In this document: positions 6,921 through 32,000 of the stretch, in pieces
How the letters are laid out: each line of letters starts with the position of its first letter
How positions within the stretch are numbered: the stretch's first letter is position 1
NCBI GenBank assembly: GCA_017409845.1
Contig: JAFQRY010000009.1
Span: forward strand, 45,715 to 77,714
Direction: 5' to 3'
Length of the DNA: 32,000 bases
Origin: Clostridia bacterium
GTDB taxonomy: Bacteria; Bacillota; Clostridia; Oscillospirales; Acutalibacteraceae
The notes under the pieces: model-generated
Databases searched by the model: none
Seen by the model: the letters and a program-made list of their open reading frames with translations, nothing else
What the model was told of the DNA's origin: nothing
Position numbers and translations under genes: made by a program

Positions 6921-6983
6921 TAATAATGAAAAATGAATAATGAATAATGAAAAATTAATGATAGGCTGCGCCTATGACCGATT
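6921..6983 (+). repeat. Interspersed repeat family R1 (AATGAATAAT-rich tract + short hairpin + CCGATT), copy a, inside the aspS 5' UTR
   Basis: taataatgaaaaatgaataatgaataatgaaaaattaatgATAGGCtgcGCCTATgaccgatt matches 22353-22408 (...aataatgaataatgaataattaaggAAGGGCtacGCCCTTgcccgatt). The stem sequence differs between copies but pairing is kept. Confidence 0.6.
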
Positions 6984-6998
6984 TGATATTTTGTAAAA

Positions 6999-17346: not shown

Positions 17347-17400
17347 GCAAGCAATATTATATAAAAACCGGAGCGAAGTGACCCTTAATTACGCATTAAC
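17347..17400 (-). repeat. Interspersed repeat family R2, inverted copy
   Basis: The reverse complement gttaatgcgtaattaagggtcacttcgctccggtttttatataatattgcttg aligns with 22422-22473 (tcgtaatgagtaattaagggtcgctttgctctgattttttataataatgcttg). Confidence 0.55.
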
Positions 17401-18241: not shown

Positions 18242-19252
18242 TCAAAGCTCAATTTTAACAAAGGCAACATTGAGTCTTTCGTATGTATAAGCAATGTAAA
18301 GGGATCCGTTGCGGTATTCTATTGCGGGATAGGAAAATTCGCTGTCAATTTTTTCTTCTTCAAGAACGAGTGCGGTTTCCCATGTGATACCGTTGTCGGT
18401 TGATTTCTGAAGCGTGAGCGGAGAGCGCTCGCCCCAGTTTTCGCCGACGGGATTTGAAAGAAGCCAGAGTGCACCGTCGGGAGTTCTGACAACATCAAGA
18501 CCGCTGTTGTTGTTGAGAAGGCTCGTTTCATATGCCTGACACCAGGTTTCGCCGTAATCCTCGGAGTCGCTTCTGTATGCCTTGCCCACGGCTGTTCTTG
18601 TGAGCATGTGAACCTTGCCGGGTGCGGACTCCCAGAGAGTGGGCTGAATCATGGGAATGAGGTTTGATGTGTAATGATTAAGACTGTTGAGGATGGGTGC
18701 GGTCTGCTCGGTTTTGATTTTTGCACCCTTTTTCCAGGTCAGACCGTCATCAAAGGAGGTGTCAACAAAGCAGTTCCAGCCTCTGTTTTCGCTCGATGCG
18801 GGAGCAAGAATTCTGCCGTCGGAGAGACGGATACACTTATTTTTAACGGGACCTCTGCCGCCGCTTCTGTCGCCTGCAACAAGCTCACGGGGAGAGTCAA
18901 AGCTTCTTCCGTTATCCTTTGAAACACAGAAGAAGGTACGCCATAAAGAAATTCCCTTTCCTACCTTGAAATAGAGAACAACCTCTCCGTTTTCACGAAG
19001 AAAAAGAACGGGATTCCAGTGGGGGATGCGGCTGTTATAGGTTATTGCTTCGGGCTTGCTCCAGCCGTTTTCATCTCTGCGTGCATACCAGATGTCAACA
19101 TCCTTTTTTCCCTCCTTTGTGCCTCCGAACCAGGCAGAAATAACGCTGCCGTCGGGCAGAGGAAGAACAGTTGATGCGTGGCAGTTTGCGGTGGGAAGAG
19201 GATTGCATACAAATTCTTTTATAATTTTCATATCGTTCACCTTATAATTCAA
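18242..19252 (-). CDS. BNR/Asp-box repeat protein, sialidase (GH33)-like beta-propeller, no signal peptide
   Basis: 336 aa with four Asp-box motifs: SKDNGRSF, SFDDGLTW, SEDYGETW, STDNGITW. Confidence 0.75.
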   Translation of the reverse strand: MNYKVNDMKIIKEFVCNPLPTANCHASTVLPLPDGSVISAWFGGTKEGKKDVDIWYARRDENGWSKPEAITYNSRIPHWNPVLFLRENGEVVLYFKVGKGISLWRTFFCVSKDNGRSFDSPRELVAGDRSGGRGPVKNKCIRLSDGRILAPASSENRGWNCFVDTSFDDGLTWKKGAKIKTEQTAPILNSLNHYTSNLIPMIQPTLWESAPGKVHMLTRTAVGKAYRSDSEDYGETWCQAYETSLLNNNSGLDVVRTPDGALWLLSNPVGENWGERSPLTLQKSTDNGITWETALVLEEEKIDSEFSYPAIEYRNGSLYIAYTYERLNVAFVKIEL

Positions 19253-19460
19253 ATTCTGAGGGATCGGCTTTTTCTATCATAAGCGGTTTTTTAGGTCTGC
19301 GCTTGAGCGGGTCATAGGAATATTTCATGCATTTTCCGTCGGTGGCAACAATTCCTTTTTTTATGCAGAGAACAGACTGCTCATCGGGAGAAAGCCTGCC
19401 GTGAACGCAATGCTCACACATCGGCGGATATTTTTTCTTTTCAAAAAGCTTTTTTCTCAT
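19242..19460 (-). CDS. Small basic four-cysteine protein (possible zinc ribbon), function unknown
   Basis: 72 aa, MRKKLFEKKKYPPMCEHCVHGRLSPDEQSVLCIKKGIVATDGKCMKY.... GGAAAGG RBS. The 3' end overlaps the BNR gene start by 11 nt. Confidence 0.5.
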   Translation of the reverse strand: MRKKLFEKKKYPPMCEHCVHGRLSPDEQSVLCIKKGIVATDGKCMKYSYDPLKRRPKKPLMIEKADPSEFEL

Positions 19461-19478
19461 CTTTCAACAACCTTTCCT

Positions 19479-19757
19479 TAGAGTGGCGAGAGTGATCCGA
19501 ACTATGTTTTTTATCGGATGATTTCTGCCTTCTCGTCGTTAAAATACTCGCAAATCCGTCAAGGATTTGCTCCGTTTTGTGCCTTGATAAGCCAAAAATC
19601 CTCTCGATAAAAAATCTTCGACCTGAAAGCGAAGGATTTTAAAATGGTTTTTGGCGGTTGAGGGTGCAGGAAGGCTGACGCCTTTCAATCCCGAAACGCC
19701 AAAAAGCGTTGAAAAGACTCGCTTTAAGGCATAGTTCGGATTGCTCCCGTCACTCTA
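19479..19757 (+). repeat. About 279-bp TIR-bounded structured repeat (MITE-like), copy D
   Basis: Ends tAGAGTGGCGAGAGTGATCCGAACTATG ... CATAGTTCGGATTGCTCCCGTCACTCTa form imperfect terminal inverted repeats of about 27 bp. The whole element aligns with the reverse complement of 24856-25133. No ORF. Confidence 0.7.
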
Positions 19758-19762
19758 AAATA

Positions 19763-20809
19763 TTAGCATAGTTTTTTGCTATTATCAAGGTCTAATATCA
19801 GAAGAACGCAAAGAAACATCAGCGAAATTGCTGCGGGAGCGGAGAAGGACCACAGCTGAATGTTTTCCGAAACCGAAATCATAACCTGCTTTTCAACGGG
19901 ATGAATGCAAAGAATCAGTCGGCAAACAACAAAAGCCAGAGCAGAATGCAGAAGTCTGAAAAGAAAAAAAGAGGAAATGCGGATTCCGATATCCTTTGCC
20001 AGAGAAAAAATCTGCAGGTGAACGCATAATCCGCCGAAGGCACACACGGCGGCTATAGCGGGCAGTGAAACCTTACCCGTTGCCGAGGCACAGCCGCTTG
20101 TGACTTCGAGAATGCATGCGGCGGCAAGCGAAGCATGATTATTTCCGATAATTCTGCTCATAACCGAGCTTATTCCCGAAAAAAAGCACACAAAGCCGCA
20201 GCAGCTCAGCATTGCGGAGGCTGAAGATTGAACGCTGCCGACCAGAGCGGAGGAAAAGCTTATACTTACGGTCTTTGATTTTATCCGTTTTTCTTCGCTG
20301 TCATGCAAAAAACGGGTGAAGCAGCCTGTGAGTACCGAAGAAACACAAACGGAAAGAAGCAGAATTTTTCCTGCTTCCCTTGATCCCAGAAGAGCATTGC
20401 CTACGGCGTTAACGGAAAATCCGACTCCCGGACTGATGCAGAAAAGAATTAGCCTGCGTGCCTGAGAGCGGCTGATTGTTCCCGATTCATAAAGCGATTT
20501 TGCGGCAGAGACTCCAGAAAGATATCCGCCGAGCTGGCTGAGAATTATTGCGGGAAGACAGCTGCCGTCAAGGCCGAAAAGCCGTTTTGTCAGCGGCAGG
20601 GAGAGCTTTTGAATTTTGTGTGGAAGCCTTCCCGACCCAGCAAGAGAGGATGCCGCAAGAAACGGAAAAAGTGACGGAATAACAACTTCCGCACAGTTTG
20701 AAAGTCCTGCGGAAAAGCCTGAGGAAAATTCCTCCGAAAACAGAAAAATCAGAACGAAAAATGCAATTCCCGATAAAAAAATAAAAACTCTGTTTCTCAT
20801 AGTCTGCAC
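19763..20809 (-). CDS. ylbJ: YlbJ-like sporulation integral membrane protein (nucleoside-recognition/Gate domain family)
   Basis: 348 aa polytopic protein. AGLSNCAEVVIPSLFPFLAASSLA and GGYLSGVSAAKSLYESGTISRSQARRLILFCISPG align by eye with B. subtilis YlbJ (EGLSMWWEVVFPSLLPFFILSELL; SGNPAGAKLTARLRQENKISRVEAERLASFTNSSNP). Confidence 0.65.
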   Translation of the reverse strand: MQTMRNRVFIFLSGIAFFVLIFLFSEEFSSGFSAGLSNCAEVVIPSLFPFLAASSLAGSGRLPHKIQKLSLPLTKRLFGLDGSCLPAIILSQLGGYLSGVSAAKSLYESGTISRSQARRLILFCISPGVGFSVNAVGNALLGSREAGKILLLSVCVSSVLTGCFTRFLHDSEEKRIKSKTVSISFSSALVGSVQSSASAMLSCCGFVCFFSGISSVMSRIIGNNHASLAAACILEVTSGCASATGKVSLPAIAAVCAFGGLCVHLQIFSLAKDIGIRISSFFLFRLLHSALAFVVCRLILCIHPVEKQVMISVSENIQLWSFSAPAAISLMFLCVLLILDLDNSKKLC

Positions 20810-21179: not shown

Positions 21180-22355
21180 ATGCTTGTTCTGAAATTTCTG
21201 AGATTTCTTTCGGGATATGTCAGCCTGATTGCTGAAGGCGGTTTTCCCGAAAGGTTTATCAACCTCTGCAGGCTCAGGGGAATTCTTCTGTGGGAGTTGC
21301 GATGCAAAGACGGAGTTATCACCGCCTGCATGGGAAGAAAGGATTATCTTAAAATCAGACCCGTCGCCAAAAAATCGGGAATGAGGGTCAGAATAAAGAA
21401 AAAGAGCGGTCTGCCTTTCTTTCTTGACCGTCACAGCAGAAGAATAGGGGTTGTTATCGGCATATGCTTTTGCGTTGCGTCGCTCAGCATTCTTTCAACA
21501 AGAATCTGGAGCATTGATGTGAGCGGCAACATCTGCGTACCGAGCGAAGAAATACTTGAAGTCTTTGAAGAGCTCGGAGTCAGAAAAGGTGCGGCAGCAG
21601 ATAAAATCAACATTTCTGCCGTTGAAAATTCCGCTCTGATAAAATTGAGCGACATTGCGTGGCTCAATGTCAATATCAGCGGAAGTGCGGCAATGATTGA
21701 GGTGCGTGAGAGAGGTGCTGCCGATGAAAAAGACGAAGACGATACTCCCTCGGATATCGTGGCTGCCCGTGACGGCCAGATTGTTATTCTCCGCCCGTTC
21801 AACGGCACTCAGGAGCAGAAAATCGGAAATCCCGTGCTTAAAGGTGACCTGCTTATAAGCGGAATTGAAGAAAACAAGGATCTGACGGTCAGCTTCTGCA
21901 GGGCGAAGGGTTATGTTGCGGCAAGAACAAACCGAAAAATCGGCGTGTCGAGGAGCAGGGAAATCAAGGCGGAAATGCCTGTCGGCACAAAGAAAAGCTA
22001 TATTGTTGATTTCCTTGATTTTTCAATACCGCTCGGAAAAATATCCGATGCCGCATACAGAGAAAAAAGGCAGCTGCGGATTAACGGAGTTACCCTGCCG
22101 TTCGGCTTTACGGAATGCACCGAAACCCGATATGCGGAAAAAACGCTCAGACTCACACAAGAGCAGGCAAAAATGCTTGCCATGCTCGAATTTTATGAGA
22201 AATGCACGGAGGAATTCCGCGGACTCAAGGTAGAAAAGCACGAAATATCGTTTGCACAGGATGAAAAGGGCTGTTCGGTCGGCGGAAATTTTGTTTGCAT
22301 CGAAAATATCGGTGAAGAAAGAAAAATGCAGATAGAGGAAACCCTTTTTAAATGA
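21180..22355 (+). CDS. yqfD: Sporulation protein YqfD (stage IV-type)
   Basis: 391 aa. N-terminus LSGYVSLIAEGGFPERFINLCRLRGILLWEL, a single TM, and C-terminal domain as in YqfD. Confidence 0.85.
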   Translation: MLVLKFLRFLSGYVSLIAEGGFPERFINLCRLRGILLWELRCKDGVITACMGRKDYLKIRPVAKKSGMRVRIKKKSGLPFFLDRHSRRIGVVIGICFCVASLSILSTRIWSIDVSGNICVPSEEILEVFEELGVRKGAAADKINISAVENSALIKLSDIAWLNVNISGSAAMIEVRERGAADEKDEDDTPSDIVAARDGQIVILRPFNGTQEQKIGNPVLKGDLLISGIEENKDLTVSFCRAKGYVAARTNRKIGVSRSREIKAEMPVGTKKSYIVDFLDFSIPLGKISDAAYREKRQLRINGVTLPFGFTECTETRYAEKTLRLTQEQAKMLAMLEFYEKCTEEFRGLKVEKHEISFAQDEKGCSVGGNFVCIENIGEERKMQIEETLFK

Positions 22356-22408
22356 AAAATTAATAATGAATAATGAATAATTAAGGAAGGGCTACGCCCT
22401 TGCCCGAT
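22353..22408 (+). repeat. Interspersed repeat family R1, copy b (overlaps the yqfD stop codon)
   Basis: tgaaaaattaataatgaataatgaataattaaggAAGGGCtacGCCCTTgcccgatt. See copy a at 6921-6983. Confidence 0.6.
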
Positions 22409-22421
22409 TACATAATAAAAT

Positions 22422-22473
22422 TCGTAATGAGTAATTAAGGGTCGCTTTGCTCTGATTTTTTATAATAATGCTT
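22422..22473 (+). repeat. Interspersed repeat family R2, direct copy
   Basis: tcgtaatgagtaattaagggtcgctttgctctgattttttataataatgcttg. See the inverted copy at 17347-17400. Confidence 0.55.
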
Positions 22474-24316: not shown

Positions 24317-24823
24317 TTACTTGAATATCTTCGTTTTTTTCAATGCGTGATAAATCGGAATGCCGCCTGCAAGGCAAACAACGAGCTCGCCTGCTCCGAC
24401 TTCAAGGGCTGCAACGGCAAAAGCCGCGAGGTTCGCTTCGTTTGTCGGCATAAGAAGCGTGATTTCAGCTCCGACGATGAGTGCGTTGAAAATTACGGGC
24501 ATGACTATCGAGAGCAGCGGAAGCTCTTTGATTTTTATGTTTCTCAGCTTACGGGCAAAAAGTGCCGCAAGAAGGGTTGCAAGTGATCCGAAAACGATAT
24601 CCCATGCTCCGAAAGGGCTCGAAAGGTTGCCGATAATGCATCCGATTGTGAGACCCGGGATTGCTGCGGGTGTGAAGAGTGAAAGAACGGTCAAGGCTTC
24701 CGAAAAGCGGAACTGAATCGGTCCGTAAGCGATGCCGAGTCCTGCACTCAGATAGGTTGCCGCGGCATAAACTGCCGCAATCAACGCTCCGTGAACGAGG
24801 TTGATAATTTTTTTGTTATTCAT
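24317..24823 (-). CDS. queT: QueT-family ECF-type S component (queuosine precursor transporter)
   Basis: Start moved to ATG 24823 (MNNKKIINLVHG...), after AAAAAGGAG. Blocks GPIQFRFSEALTVL, WDIVFGSLATLLAALF and GELVVCLAGGIPIYHAL match the QueT family as I remember it. The track's longer ORF would start inside repeat copy E. Confidence 0.65.
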   Translation of the reverse strand: MNNKKIINLVHGALIAAVYAAATYLSAGLGIAYGPIQFRFSEALTVLSLFTPAAIPGLTIGCIIGNLSSPFGAWDIVFGSLATLLAALFARKLRNIKIKELPLLSIVMPVIFNALIVGAEITLLMPTNEANLAAFAVAALEVGAGELVVCLAGGIPIYHALKKTKIFK

Positions 24824-24855
24824 TTTATGCTCCTTTTTGCTGCCGTGCAGCGCCA

Positions 24856-25133
24856 TAGGGTGATAGGAACAATCTAAACTATGCCCAAAAGCTAATCTTT
24901 TCATTGCTTTTCGGTGTCTCGGGTATGAAAGGCGTCAGCCTTCCTGCACCCTCACCATCCAAAAATCATTCGAAAATCTTCAGCTTTCGGGTCAAAGATT
25001 TTTTATCGAGAAGATTTTTGGCAATTCAAGGCACAAAACGGAGCAAATCCTTGACGGATTTGCGAGTATTTTAACGAAGAAGTGACGAAAATAATCCGAT
25101 AAAAAACACAGTTTGGATTGTTCCTGTCACCCC
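24856..25133 (-). repeat. About 278-bp TIR-bounded structured repeat (MITE-like), copy E, inverted relative to copy D
   Basis: The reverse complement aligns end to end with 19479-19757. Long identical blocks include CGTTAAAATACTCGCAAATCCGTCAAGGATTTGCTCCGTTTTGTGCCTTGA and GAGGGTGCAGGAAGGCTGACGCCTTTCA. Its own ends are inverted repeats (tagggtgataggaacaatctaaactatg / cacagtttggattgttcctgtcacccc). Confidence 0.7.
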
Positions 25134-25203
25134 GGTTTTGTTTGACACCGAGCAGGTGTCCGTCAGGAAGGTTTCGAACTGACGATTTTATGCTCTGTCT
25201 GTA

Positions 25204-28506: not shown

Positions 28507-30348
28507 TTACCCGTCTGTATTTTTGCCGTGAAAAGCCTCAAAAACCGCCTTTGCGGCATTTTTATTCATGCCCCTGACTGCCGCAAGCTCTTCTTCGGAT
28601 GCTTCCGAAACGGCTTTCACCGTTTTGAAATGCTTTAAAAGAGCCTTGCATCGGCTTTCTCCTATGCCTTCGATTGAAGTGAGAGTTGACGAAAGAGCTG
28701 ATTTCTTTCTGCGGCTTCTGTGATATTCGATTGCATAGCGGTGGACCTCCTCCTGAATGGTTGAAACAAGGGTGAATGCCGCACGCTTTGATGTGAGTGA
28801 AAGCTCATCTCCCGAGAGTGCGATTGCTCTTGTTTTGTGGTGAGAATCCTTTACCATGCCGAAAAGGGGAATATCAAGACCGTATTTTTCGAGCACGGGC
28901 TTTACCGCATTGACCTGACCGCTTCCGCCGTCAAGCAGGATAAGGTCGGGCAGTCTGCCGAAGCCCTCGCCGCTGTCTTTTTCCTCAAAGTAGCGAAGGA
29001 TTCTGCGTTCGATAACCTCTGCCATTGAAGCATAGTCATCCTGACCCGAAAAGCCCTTGATTGCAAAGCGTCTGTAAGATTTTTTATAAGGCATACCGCC
29101 CTTGAAAACCACCATGCCTGCAACATTTTCGCTGCCTGCGGTGTGCGAAATATCATAGGATTCGATGAATTCGGGAGGAGCCTTCAGACCGAGCAGAGTG
29201 CCGAGTTCATCAAGTGCGGCGGTGGATTTTCCTGTTTTGCCGAGATAGATTCCGAGCTTCTGTGCTGCATTTGAACGGCACATTTCCATGAGGGAGTGCT
29301 GCTCTCCTCTTTGAGGAATAACGATGCTGACCTTTCTTTTTGCAAGCGACGAAAGCCATTCACAGAGCACTCCGCTGTCGGCAACCTCGCCGTCAATTGC
29401 GATTCTTCTCGGTACAAAATCCCTTATTGAATAATAGCTTCTTATCAGCTCATGCCGTGCCCCGGGCATATCCTCGGGCAGGTCGATGATGAAATGCTCG
29501 GTGTCATAAAGCCGTGCATCCCTGAAGCGGATGACGGAAAGACATGCCTTTGTTTCCGAGCATACCACGGCAAAAACATCCTGCTCCTCAACCGAAGCGG
29601 CAACAACCTTCTGCTTTTCCGTTACTTTTTTTATGGCGTTGATTTTATCCCTGATTTTTGCAGCTTTCTCAAATTCAAGATTTTCAGAGGCTTCAAGCAT
29701 TTTTGCGGTCAGGTCATCAACCGCTTTTCCCGAGCCGTTGATAATGAAATCCAATGCACGGTCAACCGCCTCTGAATGCTCTGCCTCGCTCATTTTACCT
29801 GCACACGGAGCGGCACACTGACCGATAAAAAAATTAAGGCAGGGTCGGCTTTTGTTGAAATCCCTCGGAAAAACCTTTGTGCATTGAGGAAGAAGAAAAA
29901 TCTTTTTCGCAGTGTCGATTGCATTTGTTATACCGTAGGAATTTGTATAAGGTCCGATATATTCCGCACCGTCGTCGAGCCTTTGCTTGACTGCGGTGAA
30001 ATTTTTCCAGCCGTTTTTTGTTACTTTTATATAGTGATAACCCTTGTCATCTTTAAGAAGGATGTTGTATTTCGGGCTGTGCTGCTTTATTAACGAGCAT
30101 TCAAGAATGAGAGCCTCGAATTCGCTGTCGCAGAGAATATAGTCGAAATCCTCAACGTTTTCAACCATTCTGCGTACCTTGATCCACATGACGTTCTGTG
30201 AACCGAAATAGGAGCTGACACGGTTTTTGAGTGCCTTTGCCTTGCCGACATAGATTATTTCACCCTTTTTGTTTTTCATAAGATAAACACCGGGAGTCAG
30301 CGGAAGCGACATTGATTTTTTTCGCAGATATGGAATTCTTTCGTTCAT
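28507..30348 (-). CDS. uvrC: Excinuclease ABC subunit C
   Basis: Start moved to ATG 30348 (MNERIPYLRKK...), after GAGGTGAAAAGA. GIY-YIG domain (PGVYLMKNKKGEIIYVGKAKALKNRVSSY), endonuclease domain and C-terminal (HhH)2. Confidence 0.95.
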   Translation of the reverse strand: MNERIPYLRKKSMSLPLTPGVYLMKNKKGEIIYVGKAKALKNRVSSYFGSQNVMWIKVRRMVENVEDFDYILCDSEFEALILECSLIKQHSPKYNILLKDDKGYHYIKVTKNGWKNFTAVKQRLDDGAEYIGPYTNSYGITNAIDTAKKIFLLPQCTKVFPRDFNKSRPCLNFFIGQCAAPCAGKMSEAEHSEAVDRALDFIINGSGKAVDDLTAKMLEASENLEFEKAAKIRDKINAIKKVTEKQKVVAASVEEQDVFAVVCSETKACLSVIRFRDARLYDTEHFIIDLPEDMPGARHELIRSYYSIRDFVPRRIAIDGEVADSGVLCEWLSSLAKRKVSIVIPQRGEQHSLMEMCRSNAAQKLGIYLGKTGKSTAALDELGTLLGLKAPPEFIESYDISHTAGSENVAGMVVFKGGMPYKKSYRRFAIKGFSGQDDYASMAEVIERRILRYFEEKDSGEGFGRLPDLILLDGGSGQVNAVKPVLEKYGLDIPLFGMVKDSHHKTRAIALSGDELSLTSKRAAFTLVSTIQEEVHRYAIEYHRSRRKKSALSSTLTSIEGIGESRCKALLKHFKTVKAVSEASEEELAAVRGMNKNAAKAVFEAFHGKNTDG

Positions 30349-31623: not shown

Positions 31624-31652
31624 TTTGTAAGCGGTGATATTGAATTTTAAAA

Positions 31653-31730
31653 TCAGAATACTCTGCAGATGATTGCCACTGCCATTACCGCTGCCACGCA
31701 AATGATTGCTGTTGTTGCTACTGTTACCAT
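31653..31730 (-). CDS. 25-aa hydrophobic peptide, copy 1 (MVTVATTAIICVAAVMAVAIICRVF)
   Basis: Below the ORF-track cutoff; hand-translated. GAGGAGG lies 8 nt upstream of the ATG. Single predicted TM helix. Confidence 0.55.
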   Translation of the reverse strand: MVTVATTAIICVAAVMAVAIICRVF

Positions 31731-31758
31731 TCTTATATCCTCCTCGTTTTTCTTTTAA

Positions 31759-31836
31759 TCAGAATGTTCTGCAGATGATTGCCACTGCCATTACTGCTGC
31801 CACACAAATGATTGCTGTTGTTGCTACTGTTACCAT
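31759..31836 (-). CDS. 25-aa hydrophobic peptide, copy 2 (MVTVATTAIICVAAVMAVAIICRTF)
   Basis: Hand-translated, same RBS. Differs from copy 1 by two synonymous changes (tgc/tgt, gcg/gca) and one V-to-T codon. Confidence 0.55.
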   Translation of the reverse strand: MVTVATTAIICVAAVMAVAIICRTF

Positions 31837-31865
31837 TCTTATATCCTCCTCGTTTTTCTTTTTAA

Positions 31866-31943
31866 TCAGAATGTTCTGCAGATGATTGCCACTGCTGCTA
31901 CGACTGCTACGCAAATGATTGATGTTGTTACTACTGTTACCAT
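31866..31943 (-). CDS. 25-aa hydrophobic peptide, copy 3 (MVTVVTTSIICVAVVAAVAIICRTF)
   Basis: Hand-translated. GAGGT lies 7 nt upstream. Substitutions relative to copies 1 and 2 are all small or hydrophobic (A5V, A8S, A14V, M16A), plus synonymous changes. Confidence 0.5.
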   Translation of the reverse strand: MVTVVTTSIICVAVVAAVAIICRTF

Positions 31944-32000
31944 TTTCTCTACCTCATTTTCAAAGTTTATTTGTTTCAGGTGGTGTTCCCTGTTGACATC

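Follow-up and report, generated by a model that had tools for sequence, protein, structure and literature searches.

BOX of Streptococcus pneumoniae and ERIC of the enterobacteria are modular, structured intergenic repeats that are co-transcribed with their neighbors. Correia/NEMIS and RUP offer closer comparisons for the element described here. Correia/NEMIS elements measure 107-155 bp, have terminal repeats of 24-26 bp and carry TA at both termini as a target duplication; they are co-transcribed, occur in full-length and internally deleted classes, contain a stem that has been proposed as a substrate of RNase III, and have no known partner transposase (PMC2229807). RUP is a pneumococcal miniature inverted-repeat transposable element (MITE) of 107 bp, which is thought to be mobilized by IS630-Spn1, an element with matching terminal repeats (PMC2229807). 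The subject of the present work is a 277-bp repeat that occurs twice, in inverted orientation, in a stretch of 32,000 nucleotides from a Clostridia bacterium of the family Acutalibacteraceae (assembly GCA_017409845.1, contig JAFQRY010000009.1, positions 45,715 to 77,714); this whole stretch is referred to as the window, and the two repeats as copies D and E. Both are very likely copies of a non-autonomous DNA transposon of the MITE type that is native to Acutalibacteraceae gut bacteria.

The evidence for this assignment comes primarily from the family as a whole. From metagenome-assembled genomes (MAGs) of gut Acutalibacteraceae, 92 unique full-length copies were collected, all with sharp ends and unrelated flanks. 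TA borders 60 of the 92 on both sides and the remainder are mostly one base off, while sites that lack the element hold a single TA. For ten insertions of other species, the orthologous site could be located in the window genome; where the intergenic DNA aligns, the element is absent there and one TA is present (e.g., cacct-TA-aaac for the copy between aroF and tyrA, and caccc-TA-taaa for another copy). These sites demonstrate that the element inserts at TA, duplicates this dinucleotide, and is polymorphic between close species. In one genome (G061), ten pairs of terminal repeats lie exactly 273 nt apart with mostly identical ends, which points to a recent burst. The same genome contains internal-deletion derivatives, one of 156 nt and two of 52 nt, that have kept both termini and the TA flanks, and partial matches at other loci (e.g., L054) are internal deletions as well, not the ends of a longer element. 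In most of the 84 copies that were aligned for the analyses of fold, conservation, and reading frames, every one of the six frames is interrupted by several stops. None of the frames stays open across the set and no small open reading frame (ORF) is conserved among them, in agreement with an earlier reading of the window from its sequence only, which had noted that the repeats contain no ORF. Given the dispersal, the TA duplication, the empty sites, the deletion derivatives, and the lack of an ORF, the repeat is a MITE by definition, namely a small, non-coding, dispersed element with terminal repeats, a TA duplication, and presence/absence polymorphism. The sequence-only reading had proposed a non-autonomous MITE- or Correia-like family, which is supported by the dispersed copies, by their TA flanks, and by empty sites for foreign and window copies alike; the opposite case that it had considered, of two copies only, found at the same place in relatives, is contradicted by the 92 copies and the empty sites.

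The window genome (2.53 Mb, 35 contigs) holds just two full copies and one truncated copy. Its genus was sampled with 36 genomes, and 17 of these have matches, at most 11 each; weaker ones, of about 75% identity, extend to three further families of the order. An exact 33-nt pattern from the core of the element recovered at least 120 stretches; among the matches listed, nearly all come from animal- or human-gut MAGs that bear the label Acutalibacteraceae, Ca. Fimenecus, or Clostridia, and many of the core-pattern stretches lie at contig ends, which indicates that the element breaks MAG assemblies. In phage and plasmid collections, zero copies were found. The third copy of the window genome (G000 C18:28900-28977 or, more narrowly, 28905-28965) is truncated at its 5' side and comprises approximately the last 85 nt of the element. 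It adjoins a ribosome-binding site (RBS) and start codon (…TAAAGGAGAAATAATATG on the other strand), in the sense arrangement that is usual for the family and is described below.

A repeat search of the window returned inverted arms at 19495-19757 and 24856-25118 (263 nt, 84% complementary, 5098 nt apart) as well as a terminal inverted repeat of copy D (19478-19525 versus 19711-19758). The exact limits of the element were then set by a profile built from 15 copies. Including its flanking TA/TA, copy D spans 19479-19757 on the minus strand, with the element proper at 19480-19756 (277 bp) and borders at T19479/A19480 on the left and T19756/A19757 on the right. Copy E spans 24856-25134 on the plus strand, with the element proper at 24857-25133 (277 bp), and belongs to a different subfamily, its own identity to D being 84%. 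One of its borders, at 24856-24857, is TA; the other, at 25133-25134, reads CG instead. The terminal inverted repeats of D, which form the two arms of the stem P1 discussed below, are AGAGTGGCGAGAGTGATCCGAACTATG at 19480-19506 and CATAGTTCGGATTGCTCCCGTCACTCT at 19730-19756; those of E lie at 24857-24883 (queT-proximal arm) and 25107-25133 (queT-distal arm). The description of two inverted copies of about 280 bp that can be aligned end to end, with TA on both sides of D and on one side of E, is therefore borne out by the exact limits, and the imperfect terminal repeats of about 27 bp noted at the same time are present in both window copies and in all 84 aligned copies.

The two copies differ in their history. 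At the site orthologous to D, the DNA is uninterrupted in two relatives (G004 and G024), and in a third (G066) the identical TA is occupied by a mini-derivative of 53 nt (TAGAGTGAAA…TTTCACTCTA). The site orthologous to E is uninterrupted in five of the five closest relatives, including G066 at 90% identity, and the target in these relatives reads GCGCC-TT-TA-GTTTTG. Of the two insertions, D is therefore the older and has the usual sense orientation; E is young and lineage-specific, lies in the rare antisense orientation, and splits the conserved leader of queT. The earlier suggestion that the inverted pair might mediate inversion of the intervening segment (19.5-25.1 kb) received no support, since a single contig of G066 holds both sites in collinear order and equal orientation.

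The element keeps a conserved fold of three long-range stems, P1, P2, and P3, which were predicted with RNAalifold from the 84 copies. P1 is the stem of the terminal repeats; all 19 of its pairs persist, 18 with compensatory changes. The arms of P2 are formed by alignment columns 29-40 and 132-143 and those of P3 by columns 151-180 and 233-261; an invariant 8-bp hairpin caps P3. Overall, 96.6% of the cells are paired, and 40 of the 63 pairs have changed on both sides. The covariation score is 0.324, compared with 0.08-0.11 when the partners are slid by one to three columns; 0 of 500 shuffles reached it, a figure that is no probability because the copies are related. At columns 159/252, the pair types CG, AU, GC, and UA all occur. 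The slid controls together with such varied pair types make the covariation convincing. Rfam 15 gave no match at the gathering score in the window and none within either copy at E<=10. The structured non-coding RNA family that the sequence-only reading had offered as an alternative is partly upheld, as regards the fold with its compensatory changes; as a dedicated regulator it does not stand, since the genes downstream of the copies are unrelated in function.

The internal hairpins that had been listed from the sequence are present, for example GCAAATCC-N5-GGATTTGC at 19550-19570 in D and 25043-25063 in E. Some of the local helices, such as CCAAAAA/TTTTTGG with the stem that it encloses, pair in 76-90% of the cells with almost no compensatory change; unlike P2 and P3 they scarcely co-vary, and they were rejected as part of the conserved fold. 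The hairpin cited above belongs to a near-invariant core, which in copy D occupies 19538-19584 and consists of GTTAAAATACTC, the 8-bp hairpin, and TCCGTTTTGTGCC; the counterpart in copy E lies at 25029-25075. GAGTATTTTAAC and the hairpin stem show little or no variation across the 84 copies. The mean column identity is highest in the core (0.93) and lowest in the terminal repeats (0.81-0.82), in accordance with the earlier impression that the center is better conserved than the ends. The core module is also found in more distant subfamilies.

A separate inverted-repeat element of about 110 bp was observed at L045:1455-1590 (G007:C20). Its ends read TCTTAAAAAGGATA…, and it bears the core module in the form GTTAAAAA(T)GCTCG, hairpin, then …TTTTTGCCTTG, with the changes in the stem compensated. 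This suggests that the core is a portable module common to several repeat families.

The placement of the copies relative to genes is far from uniform. The left end of the element (in the plus-strand orientation of copy D) lies 0-30 nt from an outward-reading start codon in about 65 of the 92 copies, and the distance to the stop of the upstream gene is variable, from 0 to more than 150 nt. A strict count, limited to ORFs of at least 100 aa with a start within 45 nt on loci of at least 5 kb, gave 40 copies in sense and 2 in antisense orientation, 2 with starts on both sides, and 24 without an adjacent start. As a rough null expectation, a predicted start is found 3-32 nt downstream of 18% of the intergenic TA dinucleotides in the window genome when both orientations are counted, i.e., roughly 9% for a given orientation. 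In sense orientation, the consensus of the downstream flank is TA-A-G-G, the beginning of the host Shine-Dalgarno sequence, and the upstream flank shows little beyond T-TA. This Shine-Dalgarno is the host's own, because it is retained at empty sites. The target (TAAGGTGA, TAGGGTGA) resembles the termini of the element itself (TA|AAGGTGAAC, TA|AGGGTGACG; TA|AGGTGA, TA|GGGTGA), and copies that abut the end of another copy were found at three loci (L104, L095, and L096). Insertions split the operons clpP|clpX, rny|ymdB, lepB|ylqF, and aroF|tyrA, and the genes that follow the copies are housekeeping genes without a common function (clpX, ymdB, ylqF, tyrA, rpmE, pnuC, cca, udk, and genes for a GH2 enzyme and a hydrogenase-like protein). 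Gene direction is by far the better predictor of orientation (40:2), as the split with respect to local GC skew is just 25:15. This argues against a purely replication-linked mechanism, and replication-linked orientation was rejected on these grounds.

As a MITE, the element would be moved by an enzyme supplied in trans, and the terminal inverted repeats of about 27 bp would be the ends that are cut. The combination of a TA duplication and long terminal repeats marks chemistry of the IS630/Tc1-mariner type, the type proposed for RUP. Insertion would strongly favor a TA just 5' of the Shine-Dalgarno sequence (TA|AGG…), and such an RBS-adjacent target would usually place the element within operons or 5' leaders, 0-30 nt before the start, where it is probably transcribed as part of the mRNA of the downstream gene. 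In single-stranded form it would adopt a three-way fold, with P1 as the terminal stem, P2 as a long-range stem, and P3 carrying the invariant hairpin core. This fold may have been selected for harmlessness or usefulness in the mRNA, or may be read by the mobilizing machinery. Conceivable roles in the mRNA are those of an RNase III substrate or of a structural insulator beside the RBS; the 27-bp P1 helix near the RBS would be a natural substrate of RNase III, as has been proposed for Correia/NEMIS (PMC2229807).

Several observations weigh against the assignment to a classical MITE moved by such chemistry. The DDE_3 domain of IS630-type transposases (PF13358) had no match in the window genome and 60 relatives (61 genomes), with control genomes scoring as they should, and in five genomes rich in the element no match to DDE_Tnp_1, DDE_Tnp_1_2, or rve exceeded the family cut-off. 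A few genomes encode IS30 transposases; their distribution does not follow that of the element and their ends are unrelated, for which reason IS30 was rejected as a partner. No orphan terminal repeat was found in 1.09 Mb of fetched loci. In classical MITEs, the terminal repeats are the best conserved part, being the binding sites of the transposase; here, they are the most variable part and co-vary, and the interior core is nearly invariant. Variable, co-varying ends and an invariant core fit a mechanism that reads structure better than a DDE transposase that reads sequence. The indications as to which strand folds conflict. Among the predicted pairs, G·U outnumbers A·C on the sense strand (254 versus 65); the prediction was itself made on that strand, however, and folding of the opposite strand is the more stable in 78 of the 84 copies. 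Furthermore, symmetric cut-and-paste should insert in either orientation, so that the 40:2 bias requires an extra cause, and the regulatory signals considered supply none. The element contains no conserved -35/-10 pair of a sigma-70 promoter facing the downstream gene; the sole conserved -10-like hexamer, TAAAAT, lies within the invariant core on the other strand and has a poor -35. The core hairpin scored as weakly terminator-like in both directions, and there is no convincing terminator in either orientation; terminator asymmetry was rejected as the cause of the bias, the local hairpin and U-run being too weak at -2 to -5 kcal/mol.

The enzyme search in the window genome itself gave the same picture, with no DDE_3, DDE_Tnp_1, DDE_Tnp_1_2, IS30, or rve domain on any contig, so that the lack of a transposase, first noted for the window, extends to the whole genome for these domain types. 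In G061, the terminal-repeat matches are all 273-nt pairs or short deletion derivatives, and no longer parent is among them. A parent insertion sequence with matching terminal repeats, as envisaged in the earlier reading, was searched for, and no autonomous element with matching ends was found in the genomes searched, all of them MAGs; the absence of a partner is weak evidence, because MAGs often lose insertion sequences. Genes for Y1_Tnp (HUH) enzymes were detected, of the IS200 type in G001 and G061 and as four RayT-like paralogues in the window genome; none of them could be linked to the element.

The RayT-like genes (PF01797) of the window genome are found at G000 C4:32799-33326, C9:99556-100065, C17:7068-7583, and C9:48241-48624, off the contig of the window. 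They encode proteins of about 130-175 aa with the motifs MPNHIH (HUH) and YIxxNP (YxxxNP), and each gene lies between housekeeping genes. The 277-bp element is absent from the flanks of all four.

The shortage of DDE transposases and the nature of the conserved parts raise the question of a different enzyme. The repeat might be a REPIN-like single-stranded DNA element, moved by an HUH (Y1) enzyme of the RayT/IS200 type that reads the folded strand and recognizes in particular the invariant hairpin with its flank GAGTATTTTAAC, in which case TA would be a cleavage or target motif and not a true duplication. Covariation in all three stems, an invariant hairpin core, and variable ends are what hairpin-reading enzymes select; the four RayT-like genes of the window genome (about 170 aa) and the IS200-type genes of G001 and G061 would be candidate sources of the enzyme, no DDE transposase was detected, and the orientation bias hints at an asymmetric, strand-specific mechanism. 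REPINs and IS200/IS605 elements, however, have subterminal hairpins and make no target duplication, which is at odds with the long terminal inverted repeats, the TA on both sides, and the single TA at empty sites. In addition, the RayT-like genes are not flanked by the element, G031 has eight element matches but no Y1_Tnp match (this genome is 83% complete), and the orientation tracks the gene and not the GC skew, whereas IS200/IS605 elements track the replication fork. We regard this explanation as improbable. The conserved multi-stem fold with its covariation, together with the sense orientation immediately upstream of the RBS, would also suit a dedicated cis-regulatory leader RNA (riboswitch or attenuator), with the copies as paralogous leaders of the Cys-protein gene and queT. 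Against this, the downstream genes are functionally unrelated, the element is absent from the orthologous sites of close relatives, copy E opposes queT in orientation, the element has deletion derivatives and duplicates TA, and Rfam has no match. The chance that such a leader explains the copies is extremely small, and the empty sites and the diversity of the downstream genes refute it for practical purposes.

It is also conceivable that the element is an ordinary MITE whose placement and orientation result purely from purifying selection, its fold being a by-product of palindromic origin. Few sites tolerate an insertion in compact genomes, and the young copy E is antisense. The age of the copies bears on this point. 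Among the youngest, taken as those with near-identical siblings (n = 10), 4 are in sense orientation, 1 is antisense, and 5 lie elsewhere, so that they are somewhat less concentrated at the RBS than the older copies (57 of 82 in sense orientation), as selection would have it; the difference is not significant with ten copies, and even the youngest exceed the expectation of about 9%. These small numbers suggest that the preference exists already at insertion and is perhaps sharpened by selection. Moreover, compensatory changes in P2 and P3 are unexplained by a palindromic origin alone, and no asymmetry of promoters or terminators makes one orientation harmful. Selection as the sole cause therefore appears distinctly improbable to us. 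A further proposal goes beyond the MITE assignment and is offered tentatively, being on the whole rather unlikely: the element could be a mobile structured 5'-leader module, in which the fold counts and not the sequence of the terminal repeats. A structure-reading enzyme, or possibly a core-binding host factor, would insert it directionally at Shine-Dalgarno-like TA|AGG sites, and its three-way RNA fold would act on the downstream cistron. Were this the case, effects such as RNase III processing, uncoupling from the upstream gene, or mRNA stabilization would be conceivable, and the family would represent an RBS-targeting mobile element that is kept for its RNA-level effect on operon expression.

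Within the window, each copy stands close to a gene on the minus strand, and the next start codons lie 19 nt and 30 nt away, within the 35 nt given in the sequence-only reading. Copy D, itself on the minus strand, is co-oriented with the downstream gene for a 72-aa Cys-rich protein (19242-19460, minus strand), which is the common sense arrangement; 19 nt separate the element from the start of this ORF, and the RBS GGAAAGG follows directly after the copy. The RBS and start of this gene are retained in relatives whose D site is empty. No Pfam family matched the 72-aa ORF. Copy E lies 30 nt upstream of the ATG of queT (position 24826, minus strand), within the conserved queT leader, and is antisense to this gene, which is the rare arrangement. 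The gene itself (24317-24826, minus strand) encodes a QueT transporter (PF06177, E 1.4e-44). Other neighboring genes encode a BNR-repeat protein, PadR, a DUF2812 protein, and a HAD hydrolase, as well as the sporulation proteins YabP/YqfC and YqfD. The 348-aa ORF at 19763-20809 (minus strand), which had been labelled ylbJ from its sequence, matched no Pfam family at E<=0.001.

Five related species share a conserved queT leader (here 24827-24856 and 25134-25200, minus strand). It contains a hairpin, GUCAG-UUCGAAACCUUC-CUGAC, followed by another hairpin and an A-rich tail, AAACAAAACUAAAGG, and copy E is inserted in it between AAAAC and UAAAGG. This arrangement has a loose resemblance to a preQ1-I riboswitch, and regulation by preQ1 is typical of queT; Rfam made no call in this leader, of a preQ1 riboswitch or otherwise, even in relatives in which it is uninterrupted. 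Elsewhere in the window, three tandem units of 106 nt (100%, 96%, and 76% identity) lie at its end (31651-31969), and short interspersed repeats pair 6925-6988 with 22351-22414 and 17363-17398 with 22425-22460. The latter are AATGAATAAT-rich units with a hairpin, 83-86% alike, and unrelated to the 277-bp element.

A literature search found no description of MITEs in Oscillospirales or Oscillospiraceae; these bacteria are abundant in animal guts. The element inflates intergenic distances in conserved operons (clpP-clpX, rny-ymdB, and aroF-tyrA) and can be mistaken for a riboswitch or leader RNA. It also raises the questions of how a symmetric, TA-duplicating element attains a 40:2 bias and adjacency to the RBS, and why constraint is stronger on its interior fold than on its ends. 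Should the fold act on the mRNA, the family would provide portable inter-cistronic RNA modules of natural origin; should it be read by an enzyme, this would hint at an undescribed way of mobilizing such elements.

Compared with known repeat families, the element has a palindromic character and a hairpin kept by compensatory change in common with the REPIN/RAYT systems, and RayT-like genes are present in the window genome. REPINs, in contrast, are shorter, lack a TA duplication and long terminal repeats, and usually flank a RAYT gene, none of which is seen here. The reuse of the core module in shorter elements with other ends recalls the boxA/B/C construction of BOX. BOX, however, has neither terminal inverted repeats nor target duplications, the terminal repeats of ERIC are short, and we know of no placement right before the RBS in one orientation for either of the two.

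With RUP, the present family shares its nature as a Firmicute MITE, the insertion at TA, stops in all frames, an intergenic location, and recent mobility (PMC2229807). It differs in that none of 61 related genomes contains DDE_3 and that no insertion sequence with matching ends was found, so that just the TA duplication fits an IS630 origin. Like Correia/NEMIS, the element is non-coding and gene-proximal and has long terminal repeats (here about 27 bp), a TA duplication, size classes that arise by deletion, probable co-transcription, and a long stem, with no transposase in sight; this likeness is one of architecture only. Unlike Correia, it is about twice as long (277 bp), resides in Gram-positive gut Clostridia, and combines a three-way fold and a near-invariant interior core with variable terminal repeats, a 40:2 orientation, and a position directly 5' of the Shine-Dalgarno sequence. 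To our knowledge, the three-way fold with its invariant core, the 40:2 bias, and the Shine-Dalgarno-adjacent placement have not been described for Correia. Without membership in either family being claimed, the repeats in the window thus represent a real, undescribed family, whose architecture is closest to that of Correia/NEMIS and RUP.

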